Source: a virus. From it: a DNA stretch of 46,716 nt. Location of the stretch: the UHGV virus genome UHGV-0246708; one strand, written 5' to 3'. Of the stretch, positions 494 to 46,716 are shown piece by piece (the stretch's first letter is position 1; every line of letters starts with the position of its first letter). Below the pieces are notes generated by a model. It was not told the DNA's origin. It made no database searches and was given only the letters and a program-made list of their open reading frames with translations. The position numbers were made by a program, and so were the translations under genes.

Positions 494-507
494 CGAACGT
501 ACGTTCT
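494..507. promoter_or_regulatory. LexA (Cheo/SOS) box-like palindrome CGAACGTACGTTCT (GAAC-N4-GTTC), upstream of the 96-aa/int transcription unit.
   Basis: Perfect 12-bp palindrome GAACGTACGTTC. It matches the Gram-positive LexA consensus CGAACRNRYGTTYC at 13 of 14 positions. Confidence 0.4.
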
Positions 508-14763: not shown

Positions 14764-14848
14764 TAGACGTGTAGCTCAATAGGTAGAGCAATTGATTTTT
14801 AATCAATGGTGCGTGATTGCTTGTGCAGGTTCGACTCCTGTCACGTCA
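14764..14848 (+). tRNA. tRNA-like gene with anticodon-loop TTTTTAA (UUU, Lys-like) and an aberrant 17-nt variable region. It is a possible phage tRNA or pseudo-tRNA.
   Basis: Canonical D-arm (GCTC-AATAGGTA-GAGC with T8, A14, G18G19, A21). Canonical T-arm (GCAGG-TTCGACT-CCTGT). 6-bp acceptor stem with a 1-72 A·A mismatch. The long variable region does not fold into a clean arm. A terminator hairpin AAGTGGGAAACCACTT plus A/T run follows. Confidence 0.45.
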
Positions 14849-15039
14849 ATAAGTGGGAAACCACTTAAATAAAAAATCGGTATATGTCAATAAATGTTTC
14901 TACTACTGTGACACACGATTTTCACTCCTTCCTTTCAAAGTGCCTGCCTGCGGAAACAGGAAAAGGCGAGCAACCTAGTATTGTTATTCAGTGTGGATTC
15001 GGCTAGGCGTTCCACATAAATTTAAATAGGGGATACATT

Positions 15040-41861: not shown

Positions 41862-42968
41862 ATGAAAAAGTTTAGTAAGTTTTTATTATCATTAGTTGTA
41901 GTTACAGGATTATTGTTACCAACTGCCGCAGATGCTTATCAAGTGGAACAAGATCCTATCGATTTTGGCGGATATTTTCCAGGTTATGCGACTAACGAAT
42001 TAATTGTCTTGCACGAGTCAGGAAATGGGAACAACGTTGGCCTAAACAGTCTAGACAATGAAACGGCATATATGAAACGCAACTGGACGAGCGCTTATGT
42101 TTCATATTTTGTCGGTTCTGGTGGTCGCGTGAAGCAGTTAGCGCCAGTTGGCCAGATTCAATGGGGAGCGGGAGCGACAGCCAATGCAAAAGCATATGCA
42201 CAGATCGAACTTGCTCGAACGAATAATAAAGAAACATTCAAGAAAGACTATGCTGCCTATGTCAATTTGATTCGTGATTTAGCAACACAAATTGGTGCAA
42301 CATTTGACTTGGATGATGGAACAGGATATGGAATTGTGACGCATGATTGGATCACAAAAAATTGGTGGGGGGATCATACAGATCCATACGGATATTTAGC
42401 ACAGTGGGGAATTAGCAAAGCACAACTAGCACAAGATTTACAAACTGGACTTCCAGAAGATGGTAGCGAAGTTATTGTAAATCCTGGCAAGCCTAATAAA
42501 CCAAAATATAAAGTCGGTCAGCACGTTCGCTTCACAACAATCTACAAAAATCCAGATGCGCCAATTTCTCAGCATATCAATGCAAACACATTGTGGACTC
42601 AAGTTGGAACCATTACACAAAAAATAAATGGCCGTAAAAATCTATATCGCATCGAAAACAGCGGCAAACTTTTAGGTTATGCAAACGATGGTGATATTGC
42701 GGAGCTTTGGGAAAACAGCAAACCAACACCAGCTAAAACATTCACTATTGGTGTAAATGAAGGAATTGTGTTGCGTACTGGATCACCTAGTTTGTATGCG
42801 CCAGTTTACGGCGTGTGGCCAAAAGGTGCACAATTTAGATATGATTCGGTTCGTGTGGCCGATGGCTATGTTTGGTTAGGGGGTTCTGATTCAAACGGAA
42901 CTCGGATTTGTATCCCAGTTGGCCCAAATGATGGCAACCCAGACAATACTTGGGGTACTGGATATTAA
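41862..42968 (+). CDS. Endolysin: Sec signal peptide, N-acetylmuramoyl-L-alanine amidase (Amidase_2/PGRP) and C-terminal SH3b-like binding repeats.
   Basis: Signal peptide MKKFSKFLLSLVVVTGLLLPTAADA|YQ. Amidase_2 motifs VLHESGN...THDWITKNWWGDHTDP. Two SH3_5-like repeats. Confidence 0.85.
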   Translation: MKKFSKFLLSLVVVTGLLLPTAADAYQVEQDPIDFGGYFPGYATNELIVLHESGNGNNVGLNSLDNETAYMKRNWTSAYVSYFVGSGGRVKQLAPVGQIQWGAGATANAKAYAQIELARTNNKETFKKDYAAYVNLIRDLATQIGATFDLDDGTGYGIVTHDWITKNWWGDHTDPYGYLAQWGISKAQLAQDLQTGLPEDGSEVIVNPGKPNKPKYKVGQHVRFTTIYKNPDAPISQHINANTLWTQVGTITQKINGRKNLYRIENSGKLLGYANDGDIAELWENSKPTPAKTFTIGVNEGIVLRTGSPSLYAPVYGVWPKGAQFRYDSVRVADGYVWLGGSDSNGTRICIPVGPNDGNPDNTWGTGY

Positions 42969-43061
42969 GAACAGCTTGATTTTCTGTAACCCTTAGTTTA
43001 GAATAAACTTACACTTATTAAATTTCTCTTGAGTCGCCTTCCCCAAGGTGGCTCTTTTTAA

Positions 43062-43135
43062 GGACCATTAGCTCAGTCGGTTAGAGCAAACGGCTCATAA
43101 CCGTTCGGTCGATGGTTCGAATCCGTCGTGGTCCA
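43062..43135 (+). tRNA. tRNA with anticodon CAT (Met elongator or Ile2).
   Basis: Full cloverleaf: acceptor GGACCAT/GTGGTCC, D-arm GCTC-AGTCGGTTA-GAGC, anticodon arm AACGG-CTCATAA-CCGTT, T-arm GATGG-TTCGAAT-CCGTC. No encoded CCA. Confidence 0.8.
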
Positions 43136-43143
43136 TAAAATTA

Positions 43144-43172
43144 TTGATCTGCGAACGAGTGTTTGTTATAAT
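43144..43172 (+). promoter_or_regulatory. Strong sigma-A-type promoter TTGATC-17 bp-TATAAT with an extended -10 TGn.
   Basis: Seen directly at about 43144-43149 (-35) and 43164-43172 (TGtTATAAT). Confidence 0.55.
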
Positions 43173-43206
43173 CGAAGTGTAATCCTCATATGATTATATC
43201 TGCTAA

Positions 43207-43246
43207 AGAAGTTACGAAAATGCTTGTTTTCGTAACTTCTTTTTGG
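43207..43246 (+). terminator. Leader hairpin or intrinsic terminator between the promoter and the first gene of the two-gene operon. It may also define a roughly 65-nt small RNA.
   Basis: Perfect 14-bp stem AGAAGTTACGAAAA/TTTTCGTAACTTCT with loop TGCTTG, followed by TTTTTGG. It is flanked by a 12-nt inverted repeat TTATATCTGCTA (about 43194) and TAGCAGATATAA (about 43258) that abuts the start codon. Confidence 0.5.
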
Positions 43247-43270
43247 TTTAATTAAAATAGCAGATATAAA

Positions 43271-43675
43271 ATGGAAAAGTGGGGATATTCATTGTTGAAA
43301 TTTGATAATTATCCAGAGAGTTGCCCTCCAGCTGAGGCTATCCCATTTGATGGAGTTTTTTTCAGACTATGTAAGGGTGAAAACTTTTGCGAAGAAGATT
43401 TTCTTACTCATTTTGAAGCTGGGAAAAGTTTCCCAGATAAAAAACTGTGTGAAGCTATGGCATTATCATTTTTTGATAGCTATGATCATGCAGAAAAATT
43501 AAAAAAAAGATTTAGAAAAAAATTTGCAACATGTTCTATCAAACCTGTTGCAATTATTGAAGATTATGGAGTAGGAATTTTTGAAGAGAATTCAGGGCAT
43601 CTTAATTTATGGGAGCACAGGAACGTTGATATTTTTGCTGATTTAATGAAGGAGGATAAAGGAAAAGATGAATAA
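43271..43675 (+). CDS. Hypothetical Cys-rich protein (134 aa), first gene of an accessory two-gene operon. No Shine-Dalgarno sequence.
   Basis: ORF track entry. Cysteines at C18, C34, C40, C60, C88. The upstream region is AT-rich with no GGAGG. Its stop overlaps the start of the next gene. Confidence 0.6.
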   Translation: MEKWGYSLLKFDNYPESCPPAEAIPFDGVFFRLCKGENFCEEDFLTHFEAGKSFPDKKLCEAMALSFFDSYDHAEKLKKRFRKKFATCSIKPVAIIEDYGVGIFEENSGHLNLWEHRNVDIFADLMKEDKGKDE

Positions 43676-44831
43676 TCTAATATTTTCAGACATGGAATAT
43701 ATTTTCGTTTTTGACTATTATGATACTCCTTTATTTTTCATTTCTCGAAGTCGGAAAAATAATAATTACTATTTATTCTACTCTATAAATGATGACGTTT
43801 ATTTTTACAGTGAGCTATCTGCTTCGGATATTAATTACTTATTTAGTAATCCAAATGGATACGACATTCTTCATTACCTTAAAAAGAAGTCTAAATTAAA
43901 TTTTGTTATGGTAAATAATAATTCTTTTGATATCTATAGCTTAGCGGAATATACAAATATATTTAATGAAGATATTAGCGAAGCACTACCTTTGGAAAAG
44001 TATCCAATAGAGTTTGATTTGGTTCATAAGCTTGATTTTGAAGATATAAGAATTAATTATAAAAGCTATTTTCCAAATGTATATGCTAATGATCAACTGA
44101 CTCTACGAATAAAAAATAAAGAGAATAGTAGCTCGTTAAATATTGATATTGTTTATAGTGCTTTAGAATTTATAAGAAGTACATGGCAAGATTTAAGTCA
44201 AAGGCATGCAGAATTAGGAACTCAGAAGAAACTTTTGATGTCCGCACCTTCAAGAGGGTCGCTAAAACTTGATTTCGAATTAGAAAAGGATCAACAAACG
44301 GGATTATTTACTGATGAGGCCTCTTTTTCTGAACTAATTGACTTCGTAGATAATTTAGCCTATATACCAATGTACGATGAAGAAGAACTGTTTAATGAAA
44401 GAAAGCTCATTGAAGAAACTGCTAAGCTGTATAAAGTTATTGAAGAAAATGATTTATCAATTGATTTAATTTCCAATCAAGTTAAGTTGAGTAATATAAA
44501 AAAATCAGAAAAGATCAAAAGAAATTTAGATGTTATGTTGTCTAGTGTGAATGATCAAATAAATGAAAGAAACGTGTTAACTGAAGAAATAGAGATAGAA
44601 GGAGAGGTCTTGGCTGCAAATAAAAGTAAGAACTATTTTAAGATTAGGTCTTTAGCACATGGAGATATCTCAGGTACATTTGAAAGAACGCTATTTAAAC
44701 AAATAAAGACCTCTGAAGTACAAATTACGATTTCAAAAAGTATTCATGCTTATATTACTAAAGAGCAAATTACTGATATCGATACCAACGAAACGAAAAT
44801 AAAGTATACATTAAATTCTTTTACTCAATAA
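43668..44831 (+). CDS. Hypothetical protein (387 aa), second gene of the accessory operon. Very AT-rich, with an Asn/Tyr/Phe-rich N-terminal region.
   Basis: Overlaps the upstream gene by 8 nt. GGAGGA RBS. No recognised catalytic motif. A terminator follows. Confidence 0.65.
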   Translation: MNNLIFSDMEYIFVFDYYDTPLFFISRSRKNNNYYLFYSINDDVYFYSELSASDINYLFSNPNGYDILHYLKKKSKLNFVMVNNNSFDIYSLAEYTNIFNEDISEALPLEKYPIEFDLVHKLDFEDIRINYKSYFPNVYANDQLTLRIKNKENSSSLNIDIVYSALEFIRSTWQDLSQRHAELGTQKKLLMSAPSRGSLKLDFELEKDQQTGLFTDEASFSELIDFVDNLAYIPMYDEEELFNERKLIEETAKLYKVIEENDLSIDLISNQVKLSNIKKSEKIKRNLDVMLSSVNDQINERNVLTEEIEIEGEVLAANKSKNYFKIRSLAHGDISGTFERTLFKQIKTSEVQITISKSIHAYITKEQITDIDTNETKIKYTLNSFTQ

Positions 44832-44836
44832 CGTAT

Positions 44837-44886
44837 TTAAGACCCTAGCCTACTATAAGCTACGGTCTTTTATTTTTATCAGAATT
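44837..44886 (+). terminator. Rho-independent terminator of the accessory operon.
   Basis: AAGACC-CTAGC...GCTAC-GGTCTT stem followed by TTTATTTTTAT. Confidence 0.5.
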
Positions 44887-44934
44887 AAACAGTCATTAAC
44901 GAAAGTCTTGCTCCCAGATAAGAGTGAGCATTTT

Positions 44935-45183
44935 TTATGCACTAATCAAAGATTTCCTTACAAGCATTTTCTCAATGACAAGTTGATTTCGTTTATTCAA
45001 GTGACCATAGACCGCTAATTCAGATCGTTCAGGTAACATTAGTAGCGTATTTGCCAGCTCGTTTTTCGAGACGATACAGTTTATAGTTTCGTCCTGTGTT
45101 ACTAATGAGAATCGAACTAGCATTTTTGGGTACATACTTAACATTCTAATCTTATCAACTACTCCTACATAATTAGTTTTCAT
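44935..45183 (-). CDS. Hypothetical 82-aa protein with its own promoter and a strong RBS. It lies adjacent to attP on the side that becomes the attR end after integration.
   Basis: RBS AGGAGGG 7 nt before the ATG. Upstream promoter TAGACA-18-TATAAT on the minus strand. No recognisable domain. Confidence 0.55.
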   Translation of the reverse strand: MKTNYVGVVDKIRMLSMYPKMLVRFSLVTQDETINCIVSKNELANTLLMLPERSELAVYGHLNKRNQLVIEKMLVRKSLISA

Positions 45184-45249
45184 ACTATCGCCCTCCTAGT
45201 AATATAATTATACCGAATGTATGTTCGTGTTGTCTATAGAAAAATTTTG

Positions 45250-45570
45250 TAAATCTATGAAATGATAAAAACAAATGGTGATACATTTGGTGATACATCT
45301 GAAATATCTATGAAAAAAATGTAAATAGTGAAAGACTTCAATAACTAATAAATCATTGATATATAAGTAATCGGAAAGAATGAAATCTATGGAAATGTTT
45401 TATCTAACAAACGCAACATGTTCGCTTTATTAGGTAAACCAGGTTTTGAAGAATTAGCAAAAGATTTAAATGCACGCCTATAAAACAGCATTCTAAGATA
45501 ATTTTTAGCTTTGCGGTGATACAAAGATGTTTGCTTTGAAATATTTTTGGTGATACAAATGGTGATACAT
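45250..45570. repeat. attP-like region. Five direct copies of (T)GGTGATACA, two at about 45276 and 45288 and three at about 45514, 45548 and 45560, are candidate integrase arm-type sites. There are also three copies of ATCTATG(A/G)AA and an AACATGTT-centred palindrome at about 45411-45424 that is a candidate core.
   Basis: Repeats seen directly in the sequence. The region lies immediately 3' of int between convergent genes, as expected for attP. Confidence 0.5.
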
Positions 45571-45580
45571 TTATAAATAA

Positions 45581-45612
45581 AATCAGGTAACGTTTTAGTT
45601 ACCTGATTTTTT
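45581..45612 (-). terminator. Hairpin ATCAGGTAAC-GTTTTA-GTTACCTGAT overlapping the int stop and followed by a T run. It is the int terminator and reads bidirectionally.
   Basis: Perfect 10-bp inverted repeat seen in the sequence. Confidence 0.5.
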
Positions 45613-46716
45613 GTGTTGCATTTGATATAATTCAAGTTTATTTACAGCTCGTTCTTTAACTTCAGCAGATACGTGTGCATATATCTCAGTTGTTTTAACG
45701 TTCTTGTGACCAAGCATGTCTTTAATATCCTCAAGTGGAACTCCTGCTTGTCGTAAACGAGCAGCATTAGTATGGCGACCGTCATGAATTCTGATTTTTG
45801 GTAAGTTTGCTTTTTGAATGATTCGGTGCCAAGCCGTGTCAACGGATCGTTGACGAATAGGTAAGCCAACGTTTTTTCCTCTATGATTGATAAATAAAAA
45901 ATCTTGGTTTGAGTTAGTCATAGGTAATACATTACTTGTAAGATCATAATTAATACCATAGAGTTCTAAGACGGAGTTTCTCACTCTGTTTGTCATTTTT
46001 AGAGACCTTTTACCAGCATCAGTTTTAACGTCATCTAAAATTACTTGACCAGGTCGTTCTTTTCTATACAAACGCTGCTTGTCAAATGTGAGAATATTAT
46101 CTCTAAAATCAAAGTTAAACCATCGTAAGGCCATTACTTCACCTTTTCTTAATCCTAAATCAAAAATAATTAAAAAAAATACATACCACATATACTCATC
46201 AAAATTTCTTGCAGTGTCGAGGAACAGATTTTCCTGCTCTAAAGTATAGAATTCTAGTTTCTTTTCTTTATTAGTTTTTTCTTTTACTTTATCTAATGGA
46301 AACTCTACTAAGTAGGTAGGATTACTTTTTACAAAACCTAATTTTTGTGCCTTTTTGAAAGCATTGGACAAGGCGGCATTTACAATTTTTACTGTGTTAT
46401 AACTGAGCCCGTTTTTATTTTTTCCTAATTCTTTATTCGTAAATAAGCTATTAATAAATTTTTGGTGATCTGCAGGTTTATATTTATTTAATTGATAATT
46501 TCCTATATATGGATCAATATACATACGGATAGCATCTCGATAGACAATTCGTGATCCTTCCTTAACATTGTTTTTATACTCATTGATCCATATATTCATA
46601 AATTTTGAAATAGTCATTTTTTGTGGGTTTTCTTTAACGAATTCTTCAGATGCAATTTGTCCTTCAACTATTTTTGCAGCCTTCAAAGCTTCCTTATGAC
46701 TTCTAAAACCTCTCTT
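45595..46716 (-). CDS. int: Tyrosine integrase, C-terminal 373 codons. The ORF is open to the window edge and continues in frame at 105..1.
   Basis: Catalytic signature R...HDGRHT (HxxR)...LGH...TTEIYAHV (catalytic Tyr). The frame stays open through 46716 (..KRGFRSHKEALKAAK..). Codon boundaries at both window ends match. Confidence 0.9.
   Translation of the reverse strand, partial: KRGFRSHKEALKAAKIVEGQIASEEFVKENPQKMTISKFMNIWINEYKNNVKEGSRIVYRDAIRMYIDPYIGNYQLNKYKPADHQKFINSLFTNKELGKNKNGLSYNTVKIVNAALSNAFKKAQKLGFVKSNPTYLVEFPLDKVKEKTNKEKKLEFYTLEQENLFLDTARNFDEYMWYVFFLIIFDLGLRKGEVMALRWFNFDFRDNILTFDKQRLYRKERPGQVILDDVKTDAGKRSLKMTNRVRNSVLELYGINYDLTSNVLPMTNSNQDFLFINHRGKNVGLPIRQRSVDTAWHRIIQKANLPKIRIHDGRHTNAARLRQAGVPLEDIKDMLGHKNVKTTEIYAHVSAEVKERAVNKLELYQMQHKKSGN

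Follow-up and report, generated by a model that had tools for sequence, protein, structure and literature searches.

Prophages harbour many defence and toxin genes. Little is known about how the expression of these genes is set, or how a prophage escapes its own cargo at induction. This question is raised by a locus in the virus genome UHGV-0246708, a stretch of 46,716 nt that we refer to at its full length as the window and that is the excised form of the Enterococcus faecalis V583 prophage pp3, ef1417-ef1489 (Matos et al. 2013, PMC3675006). Near the right end of the window, a promoter (P1) is followed by a terminator-like hairpin (H2), which is bracketed by the two arms of a 12-nt inverted repeat, and just past the second arm begins the first of two overlapping open reading frames (ORFs), EF1487 and EF1488 (Table 1). 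What does a terminator do between a promoter and the genes behind it? The original prediction, made from the sequence of this locus, held such an order not to be ordinary and offered as explanations an attenuator or riboswitch-like leader, a small RNA (sRNA) of ~65 nt with the genes expressed by read-through, or a protein operator. A terminator straight after a promoter has, however, a classical phage precedent in PR′-tR′ of lambda and Stx phages. We find that the locus belongs to a conserved control module of ~125 nt that precedes at least 15 unrelated cargo modules, including one in the clinical reference strain V583, for which mutants and transcriptome maps are available. As its function we propose, with about as good a chance of being right as wrong, a two-promoter RNA switch at the head of a portable accessory-gene slot, in which P1 would yield an antisense-like repressor RNA and a second promoter, P2, the cargo mRNA.

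A promoter, a probable second one and two mapped 5′ ends

The consensus promoter claimed for the locus was borne out. P1 matches the consensus hexamers at 10 of 12 positions, carries an extended −10 element and keeps its position in all family members described below. In the differential RNA sequencing (dRNA-seq) table of transcription start sites (TSSs) for strain V583, from which all 5′ ends given here are taken (Michaux et al. 2020, PMC7724050, Suppl. file 2), G43179 (V583 1444054) is a 'secondary' TSS of EF1487 with a 5′ untranslated region (UTR) of 92 nt, a step height of 148.8 and an enrichment of 7.0 on terminator exonuclease (TEX) treatment, so that a transcript does start at P1, as the prediction required. 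The 51-nt upstream sequence of V583 is identical to that of the window and the TSS lies 7 nt downstream of the −10 element; P1 thus has the properties of a sigma-A promoter, with hexamers at 16-18 nt and a TSS ~7 nt downstream.

The premise that P1 is the only plausible promoter of the genes probably fails. A stronger 5′ end at A43259 (V583 1444134), the second nucleotide of the 3′ arm, is the 'primary' TSS of EF1487, with a UTR of 12 nt, a step height of 654 against 149 at P1, a step factor of 41 and a TEX enrichment of 5.7 (PMC7724050), and both ends are thus TEX-enriched. It lies 7 nt downstream of TGgTTTAAT, and the series TTGTyT, 17-nt spacer, TGnTTTAAT and then 6 nt to +1 is found in 38 of 38 unique family members, with insertions, deletions and length variation of H2 confined to its 5′ strand. 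Because the 43259 end falls where the motif predicts and the spacing is invariant, we take these blocks for a second promoter, P2, which would lie within the 3′ half of H2 and its U-tract, a reading that explains invariant blocks for which the RNA structure offers no explanation. Another internal promoter, with a −35 element TTGGTT and a −10 element inside the 3′ arm, was rejected, its candidate −10 lacking a T at position 6. The supplements of the same study list no terminator or sRNA at the locus (PMC7724050).

A conserved RNA head in front of exchangeable cargo

The stem and U-tract described originally are present, but the stem is longer than the 14 bp given for it, its core being an inverted repeat of 16 bp without mismatch (43205-43220 / 43227-43242); no perfect inverted repeat in the window is longer. 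H2 is followed by TTGGTTTAATT and is called terminator-like by a terminator scan; with 17 pairs, a 4-nt loop, the tail TTGGTTTAAT and a stem of −19.0 kcal/mol, it has the structure of an intrinsic terminator, in which only 4 stem pairs are G-C and 3 tail U residues pair with upstream A residues. The RNA of 43178-43300 folds at −40.1 kcal/mol (z = −7.8; 0 of 200 shuffles as good) into a rod in which the outer arms are stacked on H2 and 16 nt are bulged on the 3′ side. These arms are the 12-nt inverted repeat, which had been placed correctly, its second arm ending 1 nt before the ATG at 43271. The repeat alone is not beyond chance, with ~7 perfect inverted repeats of at least 12 nt within 100 nt in the window, and is taken as real because it is conserved and shows compensatory changes in relatives. 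The short form of the P1 transcript is predicted to fold as H2 plus a small 5′-terminal hairpin, H1, which holds in its 5′ strand and loop the sequence AUCCUC (43182-43187), complementary to a Shine-Dalgarno (SD) sequence and hence termed anti-SD.

Related loci sharing promoter and leader, designated by L numbers where needed, number ~45 from BLAST and four pattern scans of IMG/VR, with one further member in a Ca. Enterococcus testudinis genome (L183) and one reached via a cargo homologue; a pattern scan of genome contigs returned 120 loci, nearly all of them chance matches to a loose pattern, and only L183 was real. When 24 unique copies were used to build a covariance model, each locus yielded exactly one match, with scores of 68-100 bits; the match in the window, at 43175-43269, has 97.9 bits. 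The family appears restricted to Enterococcus prophages: named hosts are Enterococcus, and the three GenBank records that name Listeria (UNVERIFIED_ORG) or Acinetobacter as host are almost the same as an Enterococcus phage, so that their host labels look unreliable. Two such records are L004 (PQ554527.1, 'Acinetobacter phage D2SVT'), about identical in this region to Enterococcus phage vB_ElaS_B1578, and L002 (OR846730.1, 'Listeria phage LM 4-11-1', UNVERIFIED_ORG), 93% identical to the same phage. At 2887-2978 of L210, a degenerate copy (21.7 bits) precedes a pair of genes like EF1487/EF1488, next to ABC-transporter genes and in surroundings that do not look like a phage; it has kept H2, the P2-like block and the 3′ arm and has lost H1 and the 5′ arm.

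Covariation was counted on a model-fitted alignment of 38 distinct copies. Five stem pairs of H2 and three pairs of the arms (U-A to C-G; C-G to U-A) are changed on both sides, five arm pairs show G·U changes, and 98.7% of the arm cells remain paired. Over the whole structure, two-sided changes affect 9 pairs and 56 cells, whereas shuffles give 4.8 pairs (1 of 500 reaching 9) and 21.8 cells (0 of 500). In the family alignment, a single pair of H1 is compensatory and several are G·U. The arm variants L201, L205, L206, L207 and L202 came from a scan that left the arms unspecified and are thus not an artefact of how members were found. Judged by this covariation, H2 and the long-range arms are RNA helices. 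The long-range helix stacks on H2 rather than competing with it, H2 being kept in all single-sequence and consensus folds, and in neither kind of fold was there an antiterminator that competes with H2. Among the families of Rfam 15, including C4 antisense RNA, tRNA alone scored above its gathering threshold in the window and none did in the relative L002; the best other match was Yfr10, at 30 bits against a threshold of 43. No tandem repeats occur in 42900-43400, unlike what a type III (ToxIN-like) toxin-antitoxin locus would have. A 21-codon ORF (43190-43255, MIISAKEVTKMLVFVTSFWFN) runs across the 5′ arm and H2 without an SD; attenuation by such a leader peptide was rejected, the relatives having an early stop or no ATG. 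H2 as a mere terminator of the upstream tRNA was likewise discarded, since H2 is found in the leader also where no tRNA lies upstream.

Behind the leader, the sequence changes abruptly. Phage-to-phage homology covers promoter and leader, ends 1-28 nt past the 3′ arm and returns after the cargo, in one subgroup at a conserved terminator, and in the window it delimits a slot from 43271 to ~44916. The cassette stands after the endolysin in some phages and between ArpU and terS in others. By BLAST, the first genes of the cargo make up at least 15 mutually unrelated groups, among them KwaB/DUF4868 (PADLOC 1.6e-116), DUF6731 / PDC-M67A (4.3e-153), a HipA-like kinase / PDC-M66A, an NA37-like protein and many proteins without matches, and most are followed by a multi-pass membrane protein of 145-230 aa. 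With its own promoter and terminator, a module boundary, variable cargo and conserved flanks, the cassette is a prophage moron or defence cargo slot; the first cargo genes, at 127-510 aa and of many families, differ from the small hydrophobic peptides of type I toxin-antitoxin loci. The window's own cargo, EF1487-EF1488, is a rare Enterococcus module with no informative Pfam, PHROG or PDB match; the sole signal is a weak PADLOC match of the first protein to PD-T4-10_A (7.6e-5), and one remote relative of the second carries DUF6575.

The first cargo gene had been described as having an SD-less start codon. Its homologues favour another start: 7 of 9 begin at the position of TTG 43292 (MLKFD...), and the annotated ATG 43271 is replaced by ACG in L017 and by an out-of-frame ATG in L209. 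For these reasons EF1487 most likely starts at TTG 43292, 21 nt downstream of the annotated ATG, with the SD-like site AAGUGGGGA, which resembles the SD variant used in sister cassettes, and the ATG without an SD next to the repeat most likely reflects how the gene was annotated rather than biology. The start codon of EF1487 is thus probably mis-annotated, and its 92-nt 5′ UTR is probably not a productive leader.

The P1 transcript begins with nucleotides (AAUCCUY...) complementary to the SD region of whichever cargo comes next, and the anti-SD changes along with the SD region in L031, L063 and L054 (Table 1). In 34 of 34 unique members, the 5′ end is paired with the cargo SD in the minimum free energy (MFE) fold of the full leader, with a mean probability of 0.73 that the SD is paired. 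For cognate pairs the mean duplex energy is −9.6 kcal/mol; shuffles average −6.2, and 196 ordinary SD regions −7.7. Opening the ribosome-binding site (RBS) costs a mean of 7.6 kcal/mol in the full leader against 4.9 in ordinary genes; across the family the cost is 8.4 kcal/mol in the P1 read-through transcript and 4.5 in the P2 mRNA. Between the short RNA and the P2 mRNA, the predicted interaction reaches −16.9 kcal/mol against −5.5 for shuffled targets, with contacts at the anti-SD and over 11-12 bp of the arm; 0 of 100 shuffles reach the observed value in 30 of 33 members, and one shuffle does in each of the other three.

P1 itself carries a LexA-type box, CGAACGAGTGTTTG. Sites of the CGAACRNRYGTTYG type are LexA operators in Firmicutes (Cheo box). 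A box with at most 2 mismatches to CGAAC-N4-GTTCG is found in 36 of 36 unique family promoters against 1.7% of random 62-nt windows, and the GAAC-N4-GTTC core is perfect in 23 of the 36. Depending on the promoter subtype, the box lies in the spacer, over the −35 element or just upstream, which suggests that it is kept while the surrounding promoter changes. The box of the V583 lexA promoter, CGAACGCTTGTTTG, has the same half-sites as that of the window, and LexA-like sites with at most 1 mismatch number 3 in the window against 0.48 expected. P1 is near-consensus but weak in the uninduced cells of the V583 dRNA-seq. A literature search returned nothing specific on this sequence, on LexA in Enterococcus prophages or on LexA with Kiwa; AriS is unrelated.

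The two-promoter reading and its rivals

In the two-promoter switch that we propose, transcription from G43179 would run into H2 and the U-tract to give an RNA of ~67 nt (64-70), and P2 would start the cargo mRNA at A43259 on the 3′ arm, without the anti-SD. The terminated P1 RNA would pair in trans with the cargo mRNA, its arm with the first 11-12 nt and its anti-SD with the SD; a P1 read-through transcript would form the same pairing in cis, clamp its own SD and be poorly translatable, and P1 polymerases would stop on top of P2. P1 output would then be the negative regulator and P2 the productive promoter. Here we infer termination at H2, LexA binding, pairing in trans and the direction of regulation. 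All P1 products would act against the cargo, and P1 has an SOS-type operator. If LexA controls P1, damage to DNA, which is the signal that induces prophages, would therefore increase the short RNA and turn the cargo off, and this cargo is often of a defence or toxin-like kind. Of the original sRNA explanation, the short RNA fits best among the alternatives, with the TSS at P1 and ~67 nt to the covarying H2, but expression of the genes by read-through is probably wrong in view of the 43259 5′ end.

Several points weigh against this reading. The −10 element of P2 (TTTAAT) has a T at position 2, where A is canonical and usually essential, P2 is absent from the sites returned by the consensus scan, and the 43259 end borders a helix, so that it could have arisen by processing and have resisted TEX. 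The tRNA promoter 170 nt upstream of P1 is very strong, has no terminator between it and P1, and may be a constitutive source of the same 5′ sequences. The pair counts rest on a model-fitted alignment of related sequences, and the ~67-nt RNA is a predicted species. RBS masking is moderate, with 17% of ordinary genes as costly to open, and the window is an exception to the family trend, its P2 mRNA costing 8.2 kcal/mol against 6.0 for the read-through transcript with 40 nt of coding sequence. LexA control of P1 is putative; the EF1489 promoter, with a similar box, is very active in uninduced cells, and excision of pp3 was reported to be little responsive to inducing agents (Matos et al. 2013, PMC3675006).

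Extended to the whole family, the two-promoter switch would be a general self-silencing device, a view that we hold only tentatively. A weak P2 would keep Kiwa-like, DUF6731, HipA-like or other cargo on guard in the lysogen, the P1 RNA would silence it on induction so that the prophage's defence spares its own lytic cycle, and any cargo placed behind the 3′ arm would inherit this control. Two cassettes with different cargo and nearly the same arms occur on one prophage contig in two instances (L005 and L058 on UViG_2860422191_000001; L021 and L203 on UViG_647000243_000001), and the short RNAs of such pairs could cross-talk.

A serious if doubtful contender is a locked leader opened by processing, in which P1 alone drives the cargo, H2 ends most transcripts, read-through is masked by the anti-SD clamp, and a cut at 43258/43259 by RNase III, Y or J1 unlocks it. 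On this scheme the cargo would be turned on by DNA damage, in the manner of toxin mRNAs under SOS control whose 5′ ends must first be processed. The coaxial rod of 12 bp and 16 bp is a plausible RNase III substrate, the 43259 end falls at a bulge/helix junction, the P2 −10 element departs from the canonical A, and both the LexA box at P1 and the strong upstream tRNA promoter suit this scheme, the latter as a possible source of abundant precursor. Yet TEX enriches the 43259 end 5.7-fold, this end is ~4 times as abundant as that of P1, the invariant TTG, exact 17-nt spacing and TGn would be left without a role, and defence cargo would be silent in ordinary lysogens.

It is unlikely that the leader is simply an insulator or stabiliser, with H2 ending transcription from upstream (tRNA, late or ArpU operons), the 5′ structure protecting RNA ends, and the arm and anti-SD complementarity without regulatory effect. 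In its favour are the lack of a terminator between the very strong tRNA promoter and H2, the position of the cassette at operon ends, after endolysin or ArpU, and the only moderate predicted RBS masking; it leaves unexplained a LexA-box promoter upstream of the terminator in 36 of 36 members, the compensatory changes of the arms and the co-variation of the 5′ segment with the cargo SD.

Very unlikely, in our view, is the attenuator or riboswitch-like leader of the original prediction, in which a ligand, protein or phage product would control read-through of H2. The order of promoter, structured leader, terminator and gene fits it, as do the many invariant nucleotides, but most of those that are unpaired are explained by P2, the small ORF of the window is not conserved, and neither the Rfam match nor the competing antiterminator fold expected of it was found. 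Hardly credible, finally, is an element acting as DNA, either an operator for a dimeric protein or an attC-like folded site for cargo exchange: homology breakpoints cluster right past the 3′ arm, the outer repeat is conserved around a varying centre and the cargo is highly diverse, but arm G·U wobbles (L201, L202, L207) restore RNA pairing and not DNA symmetry, which disfavours an operator at the arms. A putative protein operator lies elsewhere, in the LexA-type box inside P1. The cassette is not accompanied by a recombinase and is in some copies distant from int, homologous recombination between conserved flanks would produce an equally sharp junction, and no other close copy of the arm occurs in the window, which also disposes of the arm as a repeated operator.

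Among comparable known systems, the c4 antisense RNA (immI operon of bacteriophages P1 and P7; Rfam C4) is likewise a short phage RNA, encoded just upstream on the same strand, with inverted-repeat complementarity to a downstream RBS, and represses a gene relevant to the lysis-lysogeny decision. It differs in being cut from the same transcript as its target, in its own conserved fold and in targeting an antirepressor, whereas the present locus has its own LexA-box promoter and terminator, a target that seems to start at a separate promoter inside the terminator, and variable cargo. Gifsy-1 IsrK, StxS (PMC7547250) and lambda 6S RNA from PR′-tR′ also arise from a prophage promoter followed by a terminator; in this class read-through yields a longer, different mRNA that is inert in translation or regulated, and the short RNA may itself regulate. 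These depend on antitermination (Q, AntQ) or activation by the short RNA and bear no sequence relationship to the locus, in which there is no antiterminator partner, the second promoter is internal and the predicted effect is repression. The SOS type I toxin-antitoxin loci tisB/istR-1, symE/symR and dinQ/agrB, and RNA I/RNA II of pAD1 par, share a LexA box, an sRNA acting on a 5′ UTR or SD and inert primary transcripts; there, LexA acts on the toxin mRNA, the RNA partner is constitutive, the RNAs are antisense or divergent and the products are small membrane peptides, whereas here the polarity is reversed, the RNAs are tandem on the same strand and the cargo proteins are of 130-500 aa and many families. 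Prophage morons and BstA/aba are similar as autonomous units, late or att-proximal, with conserved flanks and exchangeable cargo, in prophages that must spare their own induction; the two-promoter RNA head is peculiar to the present locus, aba being a DNA element. The locus is not a member of the c4, IsrK/StxS or SOS type I toxin-antitoxin classes.

To our knowledge, a promoter nested in the terminator of its own regulator, ahead of exchangeable cargo, has no earlier description. If the two-promoter reading is true, it would represent a new form of antisense control, encoded on one strand and with one promoter lying within its regulator's terminator, as well as a direct link between the SOS response and defence-gene expression, and whatever follows the 3′ arm would be tagged by sequence as a new Enterococcus prophage accessory or defence gene.

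Neighbouring features of the prophage

Table 1 Features of the locus and its surroundings (positions in the window; L numbers, family members).
Feature	Position	Strand	Remarks
Endolysin	41862-42968	+	
Hairpin	43031-43054	+	Inside the 51-nt leader of the tRNA; labelled 'endolysin terminator'
tRNA(CAT)	43062-43135	+	
P1	−35 TTGATC 43144-43149; extended −10 TGtTATAAT 43164-43172	+	17-nt spacer; consensus scan 10/12 + TG
LexA-type (Cheo/SOS) box CGAACGAGTGTTTG	43152-43165	.	In P1 spacer, overlaps extended −10; one mismatch to CGAACN4GTTCG
H1, small 5′-terminal hairpin	43179-43184 / 43192-43197	+	RNAalifold consensus; predicted in short transcript
5′ arm of long-range helix, UUAUAUCUGCUA (TTATATCTGCTA)	43194-43205	+	Inverted-repeat search; covaries with 3′ arm
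H2, 16-17-bp hairpin, loop GCUU	43205-43242, to 43249 with U-rich tail	+	Terminator-like
P2 (putative)	−35 TTGTTT 43224-43229; extended −10 TGgTTTAAT 43244-43252	+	17-nt spacer; −35 in H2 loop and 3′ strand
3′ arm, UAGCAGAUAUAA (TAGCAGATATAA)	43258-43269	+	Last conserved nucleotides of cassette, first nucleotides of P2 mRNA
Anti-SD / SD region, window	AUCCUC 43182-43187 / GGGGAU 43281-43286		Paired in full-length MFE
Anti-SD / SD region, L054			CCUCAUAA / UUAUGAGG
Anti-SD / SD region, L056			AUCCUCA / UGAGGAU
Anti-SD / SD region, L002			CCUUAUG / CAUAAGG
Anti-SD / SD region, L031			UCUUUCU / AGAAAGA
SD-like AAGUGGGGA and probable start of EF1487	43277-43294	+	SD-like 43277-43285; 7-nt spacing to TTG 43292
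EF1487 (127/134 aa) and EF1488 (387 aa)	43271-44831 (43271-43675; 43668-44831)	+	Overlapping two-gene module of unknown function; pair conserved in Enterococcus
Right end of cargo slot	44840-44916	+	Hairpin and T-tract after EF1488; homology with L049 resumes at ~44917
EF1489, 82-aa ORF	44935-45236	−	phrog_15227 (unknown function); adjoins attP; right end of window
EF1489 promoter, TAGACA-18-TATAAT	LexA-like box CGAACATACATTCG 45214-45227, in spacer; TSS 45200	−	Step height 2,909
Integrase	45595-46686	−	Right end of window
Third LexA-like box, CGAACGTACGTTCT	494-507		Upstream of 96-aa minus-strand ORF (395-105)

The published att core of pp3, ACAAACGCAACATGTTCGCTTTATTAGGTAAACCAGG, is found at ~45407-45443, so that the window represents the circularised phage, with int to the right of the core. 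Upstream of P1, the tRNA(CAT) has a V583 TSS at window position 43011 with a step height of 24,916 and a very strong promoter, TTGATT-17-TAGAAT. The window sequence has no terminator between this tRNA and P1, and tRNA(CAT) transcripts probably end at H2. The tRNA is not an initiator tRNA, because it has G1-C72, and could be an elongator Met or a lysidine-modified Ile2 tRNA. Similar tRNAs occur in sister cassettes, upstream in L049 and L063 and downstream of the cargo in L021 and L041.

Beyond the cargo slot, EF1489 is a candidate excisionase or antirepressor, since pp3 has no annotated excisionase, and would be under putative SOS control as judged from the box in its promoter. The third LexA-like box lies beside a lysogeny module (547-1960) that encodes a lipoprotein, an ImmA-like protease and an XRE repressor. 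Elsewhere in the window, ARAGORN reports a tRNA-Lys(UUU) at 14764-14850, unusually long at 87 nt, and a perfect 14-nt inverted repeat with a 63-nt gap (46505-46518 / 46582-46595) lies at the 5′ end of the integrase gene.

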